Source: Bosea thiooxidans
GTDB taxonomy: Bacteria > Pseudomonadota > Alphaproteobacteria > Acetobacterales > Acetobacteraceae
DNA: 64,000 nt
NCBI GenBank assembly: GCA_943370125.1
Contig: CALRPR020000008.1
Span: 3,826-67,825, forward strand
Reading direction: 5' to 3'
The notes under the pieces are model-generated. The model saw only the letters and a program-made list of their open reading frames with translations. It had not been told where the DNA came from and did no database searches. Numbering within the stretch: the first letter of the stretch is position 1; every line of letters starts with the position of its first letter. This document shows positions 1,811 through 11,429 of the stretch, piece after piece. Made by a program: the position numbers and the translations under genes.

Positions 1811-2140
1811 TTAGGTGACTGCCACGCGCGCTTCAGTGCGCGCCTGGCGGCCCTTTTCATCGGTCCAGATGAATTCGAAATGGCTCGGCTTTTCAATCCG
1901 CACGAAAAATACGTGATATGGGTTGGTCGCGGTGCCATTCTGGAAATCGGCAGCAAATAGCGTTTCACCATTCAGCCGCACCATCAGCCGTGTCAGCATA
2001 TCGCGCGGCAAGGCGCGGCCGGCTTCATGGCGCAGCCCCGTTTCCATCGGGTGTTCGATCAGGGTGCGGATTTCAATCACCTCACCCACGCGGGCGCTAC
2101 GCGGGATGCGAATGCGGGGCTGGGATGGCAAAGCGCTCAT
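1811..2140 (-). CDS. soxZ: SoxZ-family sulfur-carrier subunit
   Basis: IEHPMETGLR and NPY motifs, WTDEKG; start overlaps soxY stop (ATGA). Confidence 0.85.
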   Translation of the reverse strand: MSALPSQPRIRIPRSARVGEVIEIRTLIEHPMETGLRHEAGRALPRDMLTRLMVRLNGETLFAADFQNGTATNPYHVFFVRIEKPSHFEFIWTDEKGRQARTEARVAVT

Positions 2141-2562
2141 GACAGGCACCCCCCGGCGCCAACACGCATTTCCGCGCTGGCACGCATGACGCGGCCGGTA
2201 CTGGTTTCCGCCAAAACGATCAGACGTTGATCTTCAGCCAGGCGAATGCGCGTTTGCACTTCGGCGCGGGCGAGCAACGGCGTCAGCCGAAAGGTCGCCA
2301 CGCCCGGTGTGGGATTGCGGGAGGCAAAAACATGAATGGCAGTGATGTGATCCTGCTGCGTCATTGGGCTTTCCACCACAATGCCAAGCGGCACTTGCCC
2401 GCCATTTTCGGCAAGTGTGGGCACGCGGAGCAGAATGCCGCCATCGGTCACGGGCTTGTCGCCGATAGCTTCGCGGATGGTGGTGGACAGCGCATCATCC
2501 GCCCGCGCCGCAGCGGCGAAGGGCAGCGCCAGAAGCGCGAGGCAGGTCCTTCGAGCGATCAT
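2137..2562 (-). CDS. soxY: SoxY-family sulfur carrier with non-canonical C-terminus (VGAGGCLS)
   Basis: Twin-Arg leader IARRTCL, PTLAENGGQVP, NPTP, TRIRLA, C-terminal GGC; GGAGG upstream. Confidence 0.82.
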   Translation of the reverse strand: MIARRTCLALLALPFAAAARADDALSTTIREAIGDKPVTDGGILLRVPTLAENGGQVPLGIVVESPMTQQDHITAIHVFASRNPTPGVATFRLTPLLARAEVQTRIRLAEDQRLIVLAETSTGRVMRASAEMRVGAGGCLS

Positions 2563-2755
2563 CATCACCTCCAAACCACGCCGCCGGGCTTGGTGGCGCA
2601 GCAGGTTTTCTTAAGGGCTAGGCGGCGCAGCGCCTTGTTGCGGCTTGATATGGCGTCCGCATCTTTCAGGCACAAGTGAGATAATTTAGTGCTATCAGGG
2701 GATCAAGCAGAACAAAGGGCTTGCTGCGCCGGCTTTGAAATTTGGAAAATATTTC

Positions 2756-3904
2756 TCAGCGATCCAGGCGAAAAAGCGGGCGCAGACGCAGCCCCACCCA
2801 ATTGCCGGCGAGGCCCGGCAGGATCCAAAGCCAGCCATGCAGGCTGCCGGAAGCAATCCCCGCCACATAGGCGCTGATATTGCAGCCCGAGGCCATGACC
2901 GCGCCATAGCCGAGCAAAAGCCCCCCGATGACCGAGGCGCAAACATGCCGCCAAGGCAGGCGCCATGTGGGGCTAAAGCGCGCCGCAATGGCGGCCGCGA
3001 AAAACGCACCGAGCATCAGGCCGAAATTCATTACGCTGCTGCGCTCCGCAAGCACAGGGCGAAGGAAGGCTTCCGTGCGCGTCGGGTCTTCCCAAAAGGC
3101 CCAGAAGGCGGGTTCATCCCAGCCGAATTCGGCAATGATGCGCGAACCCCAGAGCGGGAAGGATGCCGTGATGACCCAAGGCCGCCCTGCTGCCCAAAGC
3201 GTCAGGATATTGAGCGCGGCGAGGATGATGGCGGCCATGGCCCAGGACCAGCGCCGTGATGCGTCTGGCGATGGCACGTTGAAGATTGGCTCAACGCGGC
3301 CATGGCGGCGTTGTTCGATCACGCGCGATCCCAGCGCCACGCAAAGAAAAATCGCCAAGCTGCCAAGCAGCGCGGGCCAAAGCCCAATCAGCTCCGGCAG
3401 GGTTGTGGCGGAAAGCGTTGGCAGATCCGCCCATCTTTCGGAATCATAAGCCGCGATGGTGGCGCCGGTGATGAAAAAGATCAGCGTCAGGAGCATGCGC
3501 GCATTGCCACCGCCCGCAGTATAGAGCGTGCCGGAAGCGCAGCCACCGCCCAATTGCATGCCAATGCCAAAGATGAAGGCGCCGATGACAACCGCGACCC
3601 CTGCGGGAAACACAATGCCACGCACCGGCGCGCCGGCGAGTGTGCCGACCTGAATGGCAGGCAGCATGATGATGACCAGAATGCCAAGCATGAGCATTTG
3701 CGCACGCAGCCCCGCGCCGCGCCCATCCGCCAGCGCCTCACGAAAACCGCCGGCAAAGCTGAAGGAACCGCGATAAAGCGTATAGCCCAGCGCCGCGCCA
3801 AGCGCCCAAAGCAGCGCGTGATTGCCGCCGTATTGCAGCGCAAGCCCAAGCGCACCGATCAGCAGGAGCAATGCCGCGATGATGGCTGGCAGGGCTTGGG
3901 GCAA
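2756..3904 (-). CDS. YeeE/YedE-family (TsuA-like) sulfur-compound transporter
   Basis: Multi-TM protein with both family motifs GMQLGGGCASGTL and GAVMASGCNISA. Confidence 0.88.
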   Translation of the reverse strand: MPQALPAIIAALLLLIGALGLALQYGGNHALLWALGAALGYTLYRGSFSFAGGFREALADGRGAGLRAQMLMLGILVIIMLPAIQVGTLAGAPVRGIVFPAGVAVVIGAFIFGIGMQLGGGCASGTLYTAGGGNARMLLTLIFFITGATIAAYDSERWADLPTLSATTLPELIGLWPALLGSLAIFLCVALGSRVIEQRRHGRVEPIFNVPSPDASRRWSWAMAAIILAALNILTLWAAGRPWVITASFPLWGSRIIAEFGWDEPAFWAFWEDPTRTEAFLRPVLAERSSVMNFGLMLGAFFAAAIAARFSPTWRLPWRHVCASVIGGLLLGYGAVMASGCNISAYVAGIASGSLHGWLWILPGLAGNWVGLRLRPLFRLDR

Positions 3905-3922: not shown

Positions 3923-4519
3923 CTAGAGAATGAAAACGGGAATGAGTGAGGCCACTAATGCCAAGGCCATAGCGTAGTTGAAAAGCCGAAAAGCGCGATC
4001 GGAGGTAAGCAGCCTGCCAATCGCGACCCCAAAGCCGCACCAGAGCGCTGAGGAGATGATGCCGGTGACCACAAAGGCCCCCGCGATACGCGCTGCCTCA
4101 GACCAGACAGGCGCCTCGGGCACGGTATAGGCTGCAAGTGCGCCCACCCCCATGATCCAGGCCTTGGGATTGACCCATTGAAAACCCGCCGCTTCGAAGA
4201 AACTGATGGGCTTCGTGGTGGCTGCGCCCTTACCGCGCTCGGCTGTTGCGATGCGCCAGGCCAGATACACCATGTAGGCAGCGCCGACATATTTGAGTGC
4301 CAGATGCAGCCAAGGCAGCGCGGAGAAAACCGTGCCAAGCCCAAGCCCAATCGCAAGTACCATAGCCGGAAAACCAACAATAATGCCAAGCATATGCGGC
4401 AAGGCGCGGCGAAAGCCGAAATTGGCGCCAGAAGCCGTGAGCATGGCGTTATTCGGGCCGGGCGTGACGCTTGTGGTAAAGGCAAAACCAAGCAGCGCCC
4501 AAAGCAGCGGGTCATTCAA
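3923..4519 (-). CDS. LysE-family translocator (EamB/YfiK-like)
   Basis: SVTPGPNN, GFRRALPHMLG, FQWVNPKAW motifs; about 6 hydrophobic segments. Confidence 0.88.
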   Translation of the reverse strand: MNDPLLWALLGFAFTTSVTPGPNNAMLTASGANFGFRRALPHMLGIIVGFPAMVLAIGLGLGTVFSALPWLHLALKYVGAAYMVYLAWRIATAERGKGAATTKPISFFEAAGFQWVNPKAWIMGVGALAAYTVPEAPVWSEAARIAGAFVVTGIISSALWCGFGVAIGRLLTSDRAFRLFNYAMALALVASLIPVFIL

Positions 4520-7391: not shown

Positions 7392-8572
7392 GCGAAATCT
7401 CCTTTGCGGGCATGGCGCCCGAACCAACACAGCGCCGCACCCGCCAGCGGCAGCGTTGCCAATAGCGCGAAAGCGTAGCGATAGCCGTGCAATTCCTGCC
7501 CGAGCAACGCAATCAGCGGCGGCCCAAGCACGGCACCGGCGAAGCTGAGTGAAATCACCGCACCGGAAGCCGCGCCTGCAGCACCAGGGGGCGCAAGGCG
7601 CACGCTTTCCGCCACCAATACGCCATTCCAACCGGCGGTGCTGGCGCCGATGGCGATGAAAAGCAGCACCAGCAGGAAGGTTTGGCTACCGCCTACCAAG
7701 GGCAGCATCATCAGGAAAACCCCCGACAGCGCGCCGATCATCATCAATACCCGCTGCCCACCCAGTTTCGTATCCGCCACCAAAGCCCAGCCGATGCGTG
7801 AAAGTCCACCGACCACCTGACAAAGCCCAACCAGGGCGCCCGCCGAAACCGAATCCCAGCCGTAATCACCAATCAGCATGGCGACCATATGCGCGCCAAG
7901 GCCTATCTGCACCAAGGCATAACAAGCAGCCGCCAAGCCAATAACGCCAAGCGCGGGGGATTTCAGCAACAGTAATGGCCCTGCCTGCAAGGCGGGCGTA
8001 CCGCGATCCTGATCCCAGTCCGCACGCTTCAATTGCAGCCCGATCACCATGGTAAGCAACATCGCAGCCGCAATCAGCATGGCATTGCGCCAACCAAGAA
8101 GCTCTGCCGTGCCAGGCAGCATCAAGCCTGCAAGTGCCACACCGAAGGGCACGCCCATTTGCTTCAGGCCAAACACCATATTGCGGCGTGACGGTGGCGC
8201 AAGCTTGCCAAGTAATTGTGAGGCAGCCGGATTGGTAAGCCCATAGGCAAGGCCAATCAGCATCGTTGCAGGCAGCGCGATGGTAAGCTCAGCAAAGCTG
8301 AGCAGCGCAACACCAACCGCTGCAGCCGCAAGTGCAATTTGCGTCGTGCGCGCCGGCCCCCATATCGCAAGCCAGCGCGGCCCATAGGCAGAAGCGAAAA
8401 CCGCGCTGAGGTAAACCAAGCCCACCTGATAGCCGATAGTCGCGCGCGCCATCCCAAAACCCGGCGCGGCATAGGCCACCAAAACAGGCAAAGCATAAAC
8501 CGCCATGGTGGCCAAGGTTTGCGCCCCAGCCAGCAGAAAAACTACCAGAGCCAGGCCGCTCGCTTTATTCAT
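7388..8572 (-). CDS. MFS transporter
   Basis: About 12 hydrophobic segments, NPAASQLL, FGLKQMGVPFG, LADTKLGG loop; stop overlaps the next ATG. Confidence 0.85.
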   Translation of the reverse strand: MNKASGLALVVFLLAGAQTLATMAVYALPVLVAYAAPGFGMARATIGYQVGLVYLSAVFASAYGPRWLAIWGPARTTQIALAAAAVGVALLSFAELTIALPATMLIGLAYGLTNPAASQLLGKLAPPSRRNMVFGLKQMGVPFGVALAGLMLPGTAELLGWRNAMLIAAAMLLTMVIGLQLKRADWDQDRGTPALQAGPLLLLKSPALGVIGLAAACYALVQIGLGAHMVAMLIGDYGWDSVSAGALVGLCQVVGGLSRIGWALVADTKLGGQRVLMMIGALSGVFLMMLPLVGGSQTFLLVLLFIAIGASTAGWNGVLVAESVRLAPPGAAGAASGAVISLSFAGAVLGPPLIALLGQELHGYRYAFALLATLPLAGAALCWFGRHARKGDFA

Positions 8573-8585
8573 GCGCGGGTCTGTG

Positions 8586-9743
8586 TCACGCCTGATGCAA
8601 CCCCCGGCGATAGGTGGAAGGCTCCATATCCTTCACCGATTTCGCGCGTTTTTCGAGCCAATAGCTCTGCGCCGGTGGCATGGCATCGAAAGCGGCATCC
8701 ACGCCGAGCTTACGCGCCGCATCGGTTGGCCAGTTCGGATTATAGAGAATCTCACGCCCAATCGCGATCAGATCAGCATCGCCGGCTTGCAGAATCGCCT
8801 CGGCCTGATCGGCATGCACAATCAAGCCAACCGCCATGGTCGCGATTGGTGCATCCTGCCGAAGACGCCGCGCATAGGGCACCTGATAGCCATAGCCTGG
8901 TCGCGCGGCCTTGGGTGGGCCGCCGCTAATACCGCCAGACGAGCAATCCACCACATCAATACCGGCAGCACCAACAAGCCGCGCCAGGCGGATGCTTTGT
9001 TCTACATCCCAACCCGAATCATCTTCCACCGAGAAGCGCATGAAAAGCGGCTTATGCGCCGGCCAGACTGCACGTACCGCTTCCACAACTTCTAGCGCGA
9101 AGCGCATGCGGTTAAGCTCTGTCCCGCCATAGTCGTCATTGCGACGATTGGCAGAAGGCGAAAGGAATTGGTGAAGCAAATAACCATGCGCGGCGTGGAT
9201 TTCCAACACGTCAAAGCCAGCAGAATCCGCACGCCGCGCGGCATCCGCCCAATGCTGCACCACTTGTGGGATTTCATCGCGCGTCAGGGCGCGTGGCATG
9301 GGGTCCCCCGCATCGCCAATCTCAGCGCTGGGGGCGACAAGTTCCCATGCCTCCCAATCAGTAATCGCAGGGCTTTGCACCAGCGGCGCGCCACCTTCCC
9401 AGGGGCGAAAGCGCCGCGCCTTGCGGCCGGAATGGCCGATCTGAATCGCCGGCACCGAACCATTGGCGCGAATCAAATCCGCCACGCGCTTCATGCCGGG
9501 GATGAAGGCATCATCCCAAAGGCCGGTATCGCCCAAAGTGCCGCAGCCGCGCCGTTCCACCTTGGTACTTTCCACCATCACCATGCCGGCACCACCCGCG
9601 GCAAAGCGCCCGGCATTCATCAAATGCCAATCGGTGATGAAGCCACGATCTGCAGCGTATTGATGCATGGGCGCGACCACCACGCGATTCTTCAGCGTAA
9701 CGCCACATTTGGTCCATGGCGTGAAAAGCAAGGGCAGGGTCAT
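8586..9743 (-). CDS. NADH:flavin oxidoreductase (OYE, YqjM/XenA class), second paralogue
   Basis: LKNRVVVAPMHQY, QIGHSGRKA, EIHAAHGYLLHQFLSP, NRRNDDYGG, AIGREILYNPNW; GGAGGA upstream of ATG 9743. Confidence 0.92.
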   Translation of the reverse strand: MTLPLLFTPWTKCGVTLKNRVVVAPMHQYAADRGFITDWHLMNAGRFAAGGAGMVMVESTKVERRGCGTLGDTGLWDDAFIPGMKRVADLIRANGSVPAIQIGHSGRKARRFRPWEGGAPLVQSPAITDWEAWELVAPSAEIGDAGDPMPRALTRDEIPQVVQHWADAARRADSAGFDVLEIHAAHGYLLHQFLSPSANRRNDDYGGTELNRMRFALEVVEAVRAVWPAHKPLFMRFSVEDDSGWDVEQSIRLARLVGAAGIDVVDCSSGGISGGPPKAARPGYGYQVPYARRLRQDAPIATMAVGLIVHADQAEAILQAGDADLIAIGREILYNPNWPTDAARKLGVDAAFDAMPPAQSYWLEKRAKSVKDMEPSTYRRGLHQA

Positions 9744-9797
9744 GGTGTAATCCTCCGCAGCCAAGCCTAGGCCAGGATGATTGCGCTGGTAAGGGGT

Positions 9798-11429
9798 TCA
9801 GACCGTCACATAACCAAGCGCTTGATCCGCCTTGCGCGTTTCTGCTGATCGCGTCGCAGGATTACCAAAGCCGCCGCCCCCGGATGTTTCCAGCCGCACG
9901 ATATCGCCCTTCAGCAAGCGCACCGCATCGCTTTTCGGTGCGATGGGTGTTTCCTGCCCGTCGCGAATGCGCATCAAGCGTCCAAGGCTGGCAGGCTTCC
10001 CGCCAGCAAGGCCATAGGGCGGAGAGCGAAAGCGATCCATATTCGCGGTGAAGATCCCCGCGGGGCTATCCACGCGCCATTCGCGAATAAGGCCAAGACC
10101 GCCGCGATATTGCCCATCACCGCCTGAATCAGGCTTCAGCCCGTAATGCGTGATTGTCAGCGGCATTTGGCTTTCGATCATTTCGATCGGGATATTGCTG
10201 TTGTTGTGCATACCGAAGGACCAGGCATTCACACCATCCTTGGCGGGGCTGGCGCCAGTGCCGCCAATTTCGATTTCCACCAGCACTTCACGCCCGCCAT
10301 CCGCTGCTTCGGTCTGAAAGGTCGCTACGTAAGAACCGCCGTAATAGGCAGCCGGCATGCGGTCCGGCAGCGCCTGATGCAGGCAGCCGAACATGACATT
10401 GGCCAGCCGATGACAAACCGCGACACGATGCGCAACAGATGCTGGCGCGCGGCAGGATGTGACACTGCCTTCACGGTGGTGAATGCGAATGGGGCGATAG
10501 CAGCCCGCATTAGCCGGCATGGCGCCATCAGTCGCCGCGATAATACTGTAATAGACAGCACAATTGGACATCGCCGGCGTGCAATTGATGGGACCACGCT
10601 GCTGATCAGCGCAGGCGGTCAGATCAACCTCAATCTCATCACCCTTGATGGTGATGGAGGCATAAAGGCGCACCGGTTCACCGGATACACCATCATCATC
10701 GAGGAAATCTTCGAAGCTATAGTTGCCATCCGGCATGGCGCGAATGGCAGCACGCATCGCGGCTTCACTCTGATCCAGGATGCGGCCTGTGGCTTCAATC
10801 AGTGTAGCGGCACCATAGCGCGCGGCAATACGGCGGATGGAAGCAGCGCCAACCTCAAGGCTTGCCAATTGGGATTGCAAATCCCCCAGCATGAGTGCGG
10901 GCTTACGCACATTCTGCCCGATCATGGCGTAGATGGCTTTGTTCAGCACGCCGCCTTCAATCAGCTTCAGCGGTGGAATACGGAGCCCTTCCTGAAAGAC
11001 TTCCGTGGCTGTCGCGGCATAGGAACCTGGCGCCATGCCGCCCATGTCTATGTGATGGCACAGCGCGCCCACGTAAGCCACCCGTTTGCCATCATGGAAA
11101 ACTGGCTTGAAGACCAAGATGTCGTTCAGGTGTTGCGCGCCGCAATAGGGATCATTGGTGGCGACAACATCATCTTCGTGCCAATCCGCCGCATCCACGA
11201 AGCGATCCAGCAATATGCGGAGCGCCGCGCCCATGGAATTCAAATGCTGCGGAATGCGTGCAGATTGCGCGACATTATTGCCATCAGCGTCGAAGACCGC
11301 GGTGGAATAATCCAGCAATTCGCGCACAGTGGTGCTGCGGCTAGTACGCCAAATGGTGATATCCATCTCGGCCGCGGCCGCGGTCAGTGCATTGCGGATG
11401 ACTTCGATTTCGATGGGGCCGAGGCTCAT
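9798..11429 (-). CDS. Hydantoinase B/oxoprolinase-family subunit
   Basis: RELLDYSTAVFD, NDPYCGAQHLND, HHIDMGGMAPGS, FQEGLRIPP, SGGDGQYRGGLG, TSGGGGFG; ATGA overlap with the A subunit. Confidence 0.92.
   Translation of the reverse strand: MSLGPIEIEVIRNALTAAAAEMDITIWRTSRSTTVRELLDYSTAVFDADGNNVAQSARIPQHLNSMGAALRILLDRFVDAADWHEDDVVATNDPYCGAQHLNDILVFKPVFHDGKRVAYVGALCHHIDMGGMAPGSYAATATEVFQEGLRIPPLKLIEGGVLNKAIYAMIGQNVRKPALMLGDLQSQLASLEVGAASIRRIAARYGAATLIEATGRILDQSEAAMRAAIRAMPDGNYSFEDFLDDDGVSGEPVRLYASITIKGDEIEVDLTACADQQRGPINCTPAMSNCAVYYSIIAATDGAMPANAGCYRPIRIHHREGSVTSCRAPASVAHRVAVCHRLANVMFGCLHQALPDRMPAAYYGGSYVATFQTEAADGGREVLVEIEIGGTGASPAKDGVNAWSFGMHNNSNIPIEMIESQMPLTITHYGLKPDSGGDGQYRGGLGLIREWRVDSPAGIFTANMDRFRSPPYGLAGGKPASLGRLMRIRDGQETPIAPKSDAVRLLKGDIVRLETSGGGGFGNPATRSAETRKADQALGYVTV

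Follow-up and report, generated by a model that had tools for sequence, protein, structure and literature searches.

Within the 64,000-nucleotide stretch of DNA analysed here (the window; contig CALRPR020000008.1, positions 3,826 to 67,825, of an assembly filed under Bosea thiooxidans and placed by GTDB in the Acetobacteraceae), the adjacent genes soxY and soxZ encode a two-protein sulfur carrier next to a YeeE-family membrane protein. This SoxY is not a canonical Sox-cycle SoxY. Sequence comparison places it in a distinct and conserved subfamily of SoxYZ carriers whose SoxY arm ends in GGC-Leu-Ser/Thr. The conserved unit around the subfamily is five genes, with yeeE, soxY and soxZ as its invariant core, and the window locus is a derived, reduced member of that unit. 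We lean, at a little better than even confidence, towards a model in which SoxYZ would serve as the carrier of a self-contained relay from periplasm to cytoplasm, encoded in its full form by yeeE, a cytochrome c gene (cytc), a gene for an FCSD flavoprotein, soxY and soxZ, and loaded in trans in this organism by the products of a soxE-soxF pair encoded elsewhere in the genome.

The minus-strand gene order is a LysE-family gene, yeeE, soxY and soxZ. soxY (2137..2562, minus strand) encodes 141 amino acids (aa) and matches PF13501 with 106 bits (cut-off 28.4). Its open frame reaches back to a TTG at 2574, but we set the start at the ATG at 2562 because homologues begin MMIARR or MIARR and a GGAGG sits 5–6 nucleotides (nt) ahead of that ATG. 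The N terminus of SoxY, MMIARRTCLALLALPFAAAARA, is by its motif a twin-arginine (Tat) leader, with an RR pair that the family alignment shows to be conserved. The C terminus reads MRVGAGGCLS and keeps the carrier cysteine at the antepenultimate position that it occupies in GGCGG proteins. soxZ (1811..2140, minus strand; 109 aa; PF08770 79 bits, cut-off 25) starts at an ATG that overlaps the soxY TGA as ATGA, implying translational coupling. The Tat-type SoxY ending VGAGGCLS, the retained cysteine and the coupled SoxZ had been named in a preliminary description of the locus, and its observations are confirmed. yeeE (2756..3904, minus strand; PF04143 214 bits) encodes 371–382 aa, its start codon being uncertain. 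The spacer between yeeE and soxY (2563..2755, minus strand) is the site at which cytochrome c and FCSD genes were lost, as described below; the gap measures 181–193 nt according to the soxY start chosen. We found no operator-like inverted repeat in this spacer, and a promoter and terminator scan gave results at chance level.

By fold and by motif the protein is a SoxY in the broad sense of PF13501, with the Ig-like SoxY fold and a C-terminal carrier cysteine following Gly-Gly. Modelled with AlphaFold2 from an alignment of 18 sequences (pLDDT 83.6), it has as its best structural match the SoxY of Paracoccus pantotrophus (2oxh_Y, 2ox5; target-normalised TM-score 0.81, 34–35% identity), and in sequence alignment its GGC motif coincides with the GGC of the solved SoxY structures in the PDB. 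The arm, however, reads VGAGGCLS rather than the canonical (V/I)T(I/V)GGCGG. SoxY scores 95.5 bits against TIGR04488 (SoxY_true_GGCGG), below the cut-off of 125, and 116.8 bits against TIGR04487, the model for SoxY with an AACIE arm, below the cut-off of 172; its GGCLS is not an AAC(I/L)(E/D) arm either. SoxZ marginally misses TIGR04490 (SoxZ_true; 74.3 bits, cut-off 76). The exclusion of SoxY from the canonical class follows from the TIGR04488 score together with its placement in a separate clade (SH-aLRT 99), and both the scoring and the phylogeny thus agree with what the preliminary description had anticipated.

The least probable explanation that we considered is that this is nonetheless an ordinary SoxY of the SoxAX/SoxB/SoxCD thiosulfate cycle, the other genes of which are hidden in the 4% of the genome that was not assembled. 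Some homologues do bear the NCBI name 'thiosulfate oxidation carrier protein SoxY', and SoxZ falls only 1.7 bits under the SoxZ_true cut-off. Against this, besides the failed TIGR04488 match and the separate clade, relatives with a true sox cluster have their own GGCGG SoxY for it (148 bits), and the genome of the window shows a soxB remnant and no SoxA, SoxB, SoxC or SoxD. The absence of soxA, soxB, soxC and soxD, first noted for the window, extends to the whole 96%-complete genome (147 contigs) by profile search and tblastn. SoxB gave no match above cut-off, only a 66-bit nucleotidase-like hit; SoxA was not detected by TIGR04484; and tblastn with a relative's SoxB, SoxC and putative SoxD, and with paralogous SoxA and SoxX, returned no credible homologue. 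For SoxA the negative rests on TIGR04484 and the paralogue tblastn, as canonical soxAX was not located near the soxYZ-B-E-F-C cluster of that relative (G009). A whole-genome profile search finds a single SoxY locus, and the co-occurrence expected of a canonical SoxY is missing: there is neither soxA nor soxB, just the 81-nt remnant of soxB.

The GGCLS tail is no chance feature, since GGCL[ST] ends 119 of the 120 closest homologues, these being the 120 best hits among 5.8 billion proteins. At 81 loci from named genomes GGCL[ST] occurs in 74, the others ending in GGCLG, GGCLA, GGCV(S) or GGCIG. Of the VGAGGCLS arm that had been described as rewired, the GGCL[ST] part is family-wide but the GA is peculiar to the clade of the window, VTTGGCL[ST] being usual in the family. 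In a tree of 134 SoxY proteins from a 50%-identity representative library, the GGCL[ST] type forms a clade of 20 (SH-aLRT 99) that includes representatives with the tails GGCIT, SGCVG and GGCAT, while the GGCG(G) proteins (69 rows) and the AACxE proteins (42 rows) form separate groups. Neither of the outcomes that would have undone the preliminary description, clustering with canonical SoxY or a tail unconserved among homologues, was thus observed. The hosts are nearly all Acetobacterales, among them Roseomonas, Falsiroseomonas, Neoroseomonas, Roseococcus, Humitalea and Rubritepida. Several metagenome-assembled genome (MAG) records titled Asaia bogorensis, Nitrosovibrio or Acidobacteria (L017, L025, L041, L080, L088, L089, L090 and L094) bear a Roseomonas-type block at 53–97% identity, and their labels or binning look unreliable.

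In relatives the soxYZ genes belong to a block of five co-oriented genes: yeeE, a gene for a monohaem cytochrome c of about 100 aa, a gene for a 425-aa Tat-exported FCSD flavoprotein immediately upstream of soxY, soxY and soxZ. The full block is present at 44 of the 81 loci. At 8 more, FCSD-soxYZ is interrupted by a contig end; 2 have the order yeeE-soxYZ-cytc-FCSD; 26 carry yeeE-soxYZ only; and 1 is undecidable because of a contig end. yeeE is found at every one of the 81 loci whose contig extends far enough, and the deepest members of the clade, with the tails GGCIT, SGCVG and GGCAT, also carry FCSD directly upstream of soxY. The adjacent YeeE had been suggested as the carrier's partner, which the constancy of yeeE bears out, but FCSD and the small cytochrome c are conserved partners as well. 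Likewise, the term 'orphan' suits the window locus and not the subfamily, which has YeeE and FCSD partners, nor the genome, which keeps an FCSD pair on another contig. Clustering of flanking open reading frames (ORFs) at 70 loci revealed no further conserved neighbour: at the 44 loci that fall outside the super-clade of the window, only abundant TctC paralogues recur. LysE was considered as a member of the module and dropped, as in this clustering it is confined to the super-clade of the window.

The same survey bears on the idea that SoxYZ and YeeE form a sensing module, similar to SoxT1B, that signals periplasmic sulfane sulfur to a cytoplasmic regulator instead of carrying out bulk transport. 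There is precedent in the YeeE-like SoxT1B of Hyphomicrobium denitrificans, which signals to SoxR (PMC11582611), and one distant member of the family (L109), which has yeeE-soxYZ only, carries an AsnC-type regulator immediately upstream of yeeE. We nonetheless regard this as improbable, for no regulator of the ArsR/SoxR type or any other is conserved beside the block in the surveyed loci, and none adjoins the block in the window.

The window locus lacks the cytochrome c and FCSD genes between yeeE and soxY. Its yeeE, soxY and soxZ are orthologous to block members at 82–94%, and the locus is nested among full blocks, from which it follows that it is a derived, reduced block. A syntenic relative (L007) locates the missing segment. 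Its DNA is 84% identical to the window on both sides of a gap, window positions 9016–2742 aligning to 1–6279 of L007 and 2567–1 to 7999–10571, and the intervening 1719 nt of L007 (6280–7998), which hold cytochrome c and FCSD, correspond to just 174 nt in the window (2568–2741). Over its first ~150 nt beyond yeeE, the spacer shares homology with the one that separates yeeE from cytochrome c in relatives bearing FCSD, including two invariant conserved blocks, GATAGCAnTAAATTA and CGCCATATCA; the rest of the spacer has no similarity above shuffled controls in local alignment. Alignments suggesting deletion scars from the cytochrome c start and the 3' end of FCSD in the last ~70 nt ahead of soxY were discarded, as their scores did not exceed those of shuffled sequences and the top matches did not fall in one place. 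The start of soxY overlaps the FCSD stop in full blocks, whereas in all FCSD-less loci examined a GGAGG stands 5–6 nt ahead of the soxY ATG.

In a tree of SoxY plus SoxZ, the 22 FCSD-less loci of the freshwater clade that includes the window (24 if two whose soxZ is incomplete are added) fall into a single group (SH-aLRT 94) nested within FCSD-bearing lineages, with an FCSD-positive sister (L022). This phylogeny indicates that the 1.7-kb cytochrome c/FCSD segment was lost once in this freshwater Acetobacteraceae clade, and that the change was a loss and not a gain. A second, independent FCSD-less pair is formed by L049 and L078.

Another reading is that soxYZ has no function any more and is decaying after the sulfide-oxidation operon to which it belonged was lost. 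In its favour are the missing cytochrome c and FCSD genes, the decay of the canonical sox cluster elsewhere in the genome (see below) and a nonsense codon in the soxY of one relative. This last case, at L021 (7321-7746), is a GAA to TAA change 10 codons from the end that would delete the carrier arm, and it reflects either a genuine loss in that lineage or a MAG error. The substitution pattern points the other way. Ratios of nonsynonymous to synonymous substitution (dN/dS, Nei-Gojobori) in the FCSD-less clade and in FCSD-bearing sisters are 0.10 and 0.09 for soxY, 0.08 and 0.08 for soxZ, and 0.125 and 0.125 for yeeE; the soxY and soxZ values for the clade come from 22–24 species-level genomes with a median dS of ~0.4. 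soxY is intact in 23 of the 24 genomes, the tail is invariant, and the GGAGG stands ahead of soxY in every FCSD-less locus examined. Because these ratios equal those of FCSD-bearing sisters, decay is highly improbable, and soxY, soxZ and yeeE are, by codon comparison, still under purifying selection after the loss of FCSD.

The genome does hold an FCSD away from the window locus. On contig C15 (locus L008), soxE (8912-9205) and soxF (9223-10515) form an intact pair of cytochrome c and FCSD genes, with the 81-nt soxB remnant upstream (8588-8667). At 60% identity to the in-block type, this FCSD classes as its paralogue. In G009 the gene orthologous to it, 94% identical, serves as soxF in a canonical cluster with the order soxY (GGCGG, 148 bits), soxZ, soxB (767 bits), soxE, soxF and soxC (611 bits); judged by this comparison, the canonical sox cluster has decayed in the genome of the window, leaving soxE-soxF and the remnant of soxB. 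Relatives hold up to three SoxYZ systems, with GGCGG, AACIE and GGCL[ST] arms. The third system of G009, with an AACIEG arm (L097 6142-10312, contig C12), is flanked by soxX-like and soxA-like cytochromes and adjoins the large subunit and the 2Fe-2S subunit of a molybdenum hydroxylase; it is absent from the genome of the window.

Of the 41 genomes compared within the genus, 30 contain FCSD together with SoxY and 11 lack the two, and among the genomes sampled every one with a GGCL-type SoxY has some FCSD. By our count, 16 genomes of the FCSD-less clade were sampled, and all have a soxF-type FCSD (93–100% identity). The soxF type is mostly missing from genomes with an intact block. G015 keeps its block intact, but its soxF-type FCSD bears two in-frame TAG stops and the cytochrome gene looks disrupted (L099 1880-3480, contig C31). 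G040, the genome of sister locus L022, has only a fragment of the soxF type, interrupted by a TGA. On these sequences G015 is the reciprocal of the window situation, with the in-block FCSD kept and the soxF type broken. The genomes of L049 and L078 likewise carry FCSD elsewhere. That genomes tend to keep one FCSD or the other suggests that the in-block and soxF-type enzymes are interchangeable, and from this pattern comes our proposal that soxEF now acts for SoxYZ in trans.

The relay towards which we lean would begin with the Tat-exported FCSD, which would oxidise sulfide and pass electrons to the small cytochrome c. Zero-valent (sulfane) sulfur would be taken onto the SoxY cysteine as a persulfide or polysulfide, and SoxYZ would offer it to the neighbouring YeeE, a channel with two invariant cysteines that would hand the sulfur into the cytoplasm. 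Receivers there could be TusA-type carriers and a Blh-type persulfide dioxygenase, with cysteine synthesis as another possible user. A Leu-Ser/Thr tail in place of Gly-Gly would fit the FCSD and YeeE partners and would exclude the carrier from the active sites of SoxAX, SoxB and SoxCD in relatives that have two or three SoxYZ systems. After deletion of the in-block cytochrome c and FCSD genes, loading in the lineage of the window would be performed in trans by soxE-soxF of contig C15. Individual steps have precedents: sulfide treatment gives SoxY S(n) adducts (PMC5336275), SoxYZ-bound sulfane sulfur has been proposed to reach the cytoplasm via the YeeE-like SoxT1A (PMC11582611), and build-up of sulfane sulfur induces yeeE and yedE along with soxY (PMC9959259).

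The cytoplasmic side of such a relay is partly visible in the genome. In 71 orthologues of YeeE the two cysteines of GGGCASG and ASGCNIS never vary, and they align with Cys91 and Cys293 of Spirochaeta TsuA. The protein is nonetheless remote from the characterised TsuA and YedE models, scoring 55 and 75 bits against the TsuA/YeeE importer models NF041049 and NF052577, below their cut-offs of 645 and 400. The genome contains two TusA genes and encodes a 295-aa protein that matches the sulfur-dioxygenase part of Blh with 352 bits; no linked sulfur genes were found in the neighbourhoods of the TusA loci and of the sulfur dioxygenase. No NIR_SIR domain (sulfite/nitrite reductase haemoprotein) was found in this genome or in any 3–4 Mb relative sampled, and the genome has a single PAPS_reduct ORF, which is CysD-like. 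From this gene content the organism is probably unable to reduce sulfate and must rely on reduced sulfur, and the small-genome freshwater clade as a whole probably can assimilate neither sulfate nor, by an NIR_SIR-type enzyme, nitrite. With sulfate reduction probably out of reach, the relay may have an assimilatory role. The preliminary description had placed the carrier outside lithotrophic sulfur oxidation. That much is not established, because FCSD is a conserved partner and a second FCSD pair is present in the genome, tying the system to sulfide oxidation, although the missing sulfite reductase leaves assimilation possible; the broader interpretation is thus supported in part.

The same gene content lends itself to a different explanation, in which SoxYZ and YeeE alone scavenge reduced sulfur for assimilation and FCSD is optional, with no part in this genome. 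SoxY would capture sulfur from thiosulfate, polysulfide or organic persulfides non-enzymatically in the periplasm and feed YeeE. A need for reduced sulfur is implied by the missing NIR_SIR domain and the single PAPS_reduct ORF; purifying selection continues to act on yeeE-soxYZ, the invariant core, where no FCSD lies in cis; exchange of one FCSD for the other left the tail unchanged; and in vitro SoxY undergoes chemical reaction with tetrathionate and with sulfide (PMC5336275). However, no sampled genome has a GGCL-type SoxY and no FCSD, which is unexpected if FCSD is optional. Four larger genomes (G021, G022, G025 and G036) have sulfite reductase and the block together, and the YeeE lies far from characterised thiosulfate importers (55–75 bits against cut-offs of 400–645). 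We consider this explanation rather doubtful, yet well ahead of sensing, decay or an ordinary thiosulfate cycle.

Several points weigh against an FCSD-loaded relay. Gene linkage and co-occurrence do not demonstrate that FCSD loads SoxY, and soxEF may be a stand-alone sulfide detoxifier unrelated to SoxYZ. The co-occurrence and reciprocal losses represent few independent events in one genus, namely one in-block loss and one or two pseudogenisations, and the pseudogenisations were seen in MAGs, where assembly errors are possible. YeeE is without the first of the three conserved TsuA cysteines, having a serine in place of Cys22. No sulfite dehydrogenase of the SoxCD or SorA type was found in the genome by tblastn. 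Finally, the tail stayed as it was when one FCSD type took over from the other. Its stability through this swap argues that the tail would be tuned to YeeE or SoxZ and not to FCSD, which favours the preliminary description's idea of YeeE as a partner.

Comparison with characterised systems helps to define what is distinctive here. The canonical SoxYZ of P. pantotrophus (2OX5/2OXG) and of Thermus, as in the SoxB-SoxYZ structure 4UWQ, share with the subfamily the two-protein carrier, the fold, the Tat-type leader, the cysteine third from the C terminus after Gly-Gly and the translational coupling of soxZ to soxY. They differ in the GGCGG tail, and in being linked to soxAX, soxB and soxCD, to which the subfamily is never linked; it is always linked to yeeE and usually to FCSD. 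SoxEF/FccAB flavocytochromes c resemble the block in that a periplasmic FCSD flavoprotein and a c-type cytochrome are encoded beside SoxYZ, and the FCSD remaining in the genome of the window is the soxF of a former sox cluster. An action of SoxF on SoxYZ has been reported for Paracoccus (Rother et al. 2001, cited in PMC11582611). SoxF reportedly stimulates and reactivates SoxYZ there. Paracoccus SoxF is accessory to a complete Sox system, whereas the FCSD of the block is its only redox enzyme and is paired with the small monohaem cytochrome; in the window, unlike Paracoccus, FCSD would act, if at all, from another locus.

A YeeE-family protein encoded with SoxYZ is also known from SoxT1A and SoxT1B of H. 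denitrificans (Li et al. 2024, PMC11582611), and the block YeeE retains equivalents of two cysteines of TsuA/YeeE (6LEO). Unlike in the SoxT1A/SoxT1B setting, no SoxXAB that loads the carrier and no SoxR or SoxS are found nearby. Altered arms and contexts outside the Sox cycle have been recognised before, in SoxY with the AACIE arm (TIGR04487), in the fused SoxYZ associated with quinoprotein dehydrogenases (TIGR04557) and in SoxY signatures S1b-S4 (PMC11237559). These divergent paralogues have other arms, clades and partners, and none combines GGCL[ST] with FCSD and YeeE. Literature searches on GGCLS or GGCLT SoxY tails, on soxYZ with fccAB in Acetobacteraceae or Roseomonas, and on soxY, soxZ, fccB and yeeE together returned no description of the block; we thus found neither a model nor a paper for the GGCL[ST] tail or for the yeeE-cytc-FCSD-soxYZ block.

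The remaining neighbours of the locus lie outside the conserved block. The LysE-family exporter gene (3923..4519, minus strand) is co-oriented with yeeE, 18 nt upstream of it, and neighbours yeeE only in the clade of the window and its nearest sisters. On the plus strand, a gene for a TupA-like tungstate/molybdate-type binding protein (934-1803; 208 bits, cut-off 400) and that for its ABC ATPase (167-940) converge on soxZ, the stop codons of soxZ and the TupA-like gene being just 7 nt apart; no terminator-like site was found between them. The TctC (Bug) family of tripartite tricarboxylate receptors is hugely expanded in the genome, a single TctC tblastn query returning well above 100 hits spread over its contigs.

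In its boldest form, our proposal is that FCSD, SoxYZ with the GGC-Leu-Ser/Thr tail and YeeE could make up an undescribed stand-alone relay that converts sulfide to sulfane sulfur and imports it, that the tail would act as an insulating specificity code, and that this would be the main sulfur route in freshwater Acetobacteraceae devoid of sulfite reductase. We put this forward tentatively, as possible and not as probable. The relay would address two gaps, namely which acceptor takes the sulfur from periplasmic FCSD and how SoxYZ-bound sulfane sulfur crosses the membrane, and the block, which joins FCSD, SoxYZ and YeeE without SoxAX, SoxB or SoxCD, offers a minimal system for reconstituting both steps. 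The natural experiment in which one clade kept the soxF type and its sisters the in-block FCSD predicts that the two FCSD types are interchangeable as loaders. For annotation, GGCL-type SoxYZ should not count as evidence of thiosulfate oxidation. For the organisms themselves, the missing sulfite reductase suggests that an abundant lake clade needs reduced sulfur, which bears on freshwater sulfur cycling and on attempts at cultivation.

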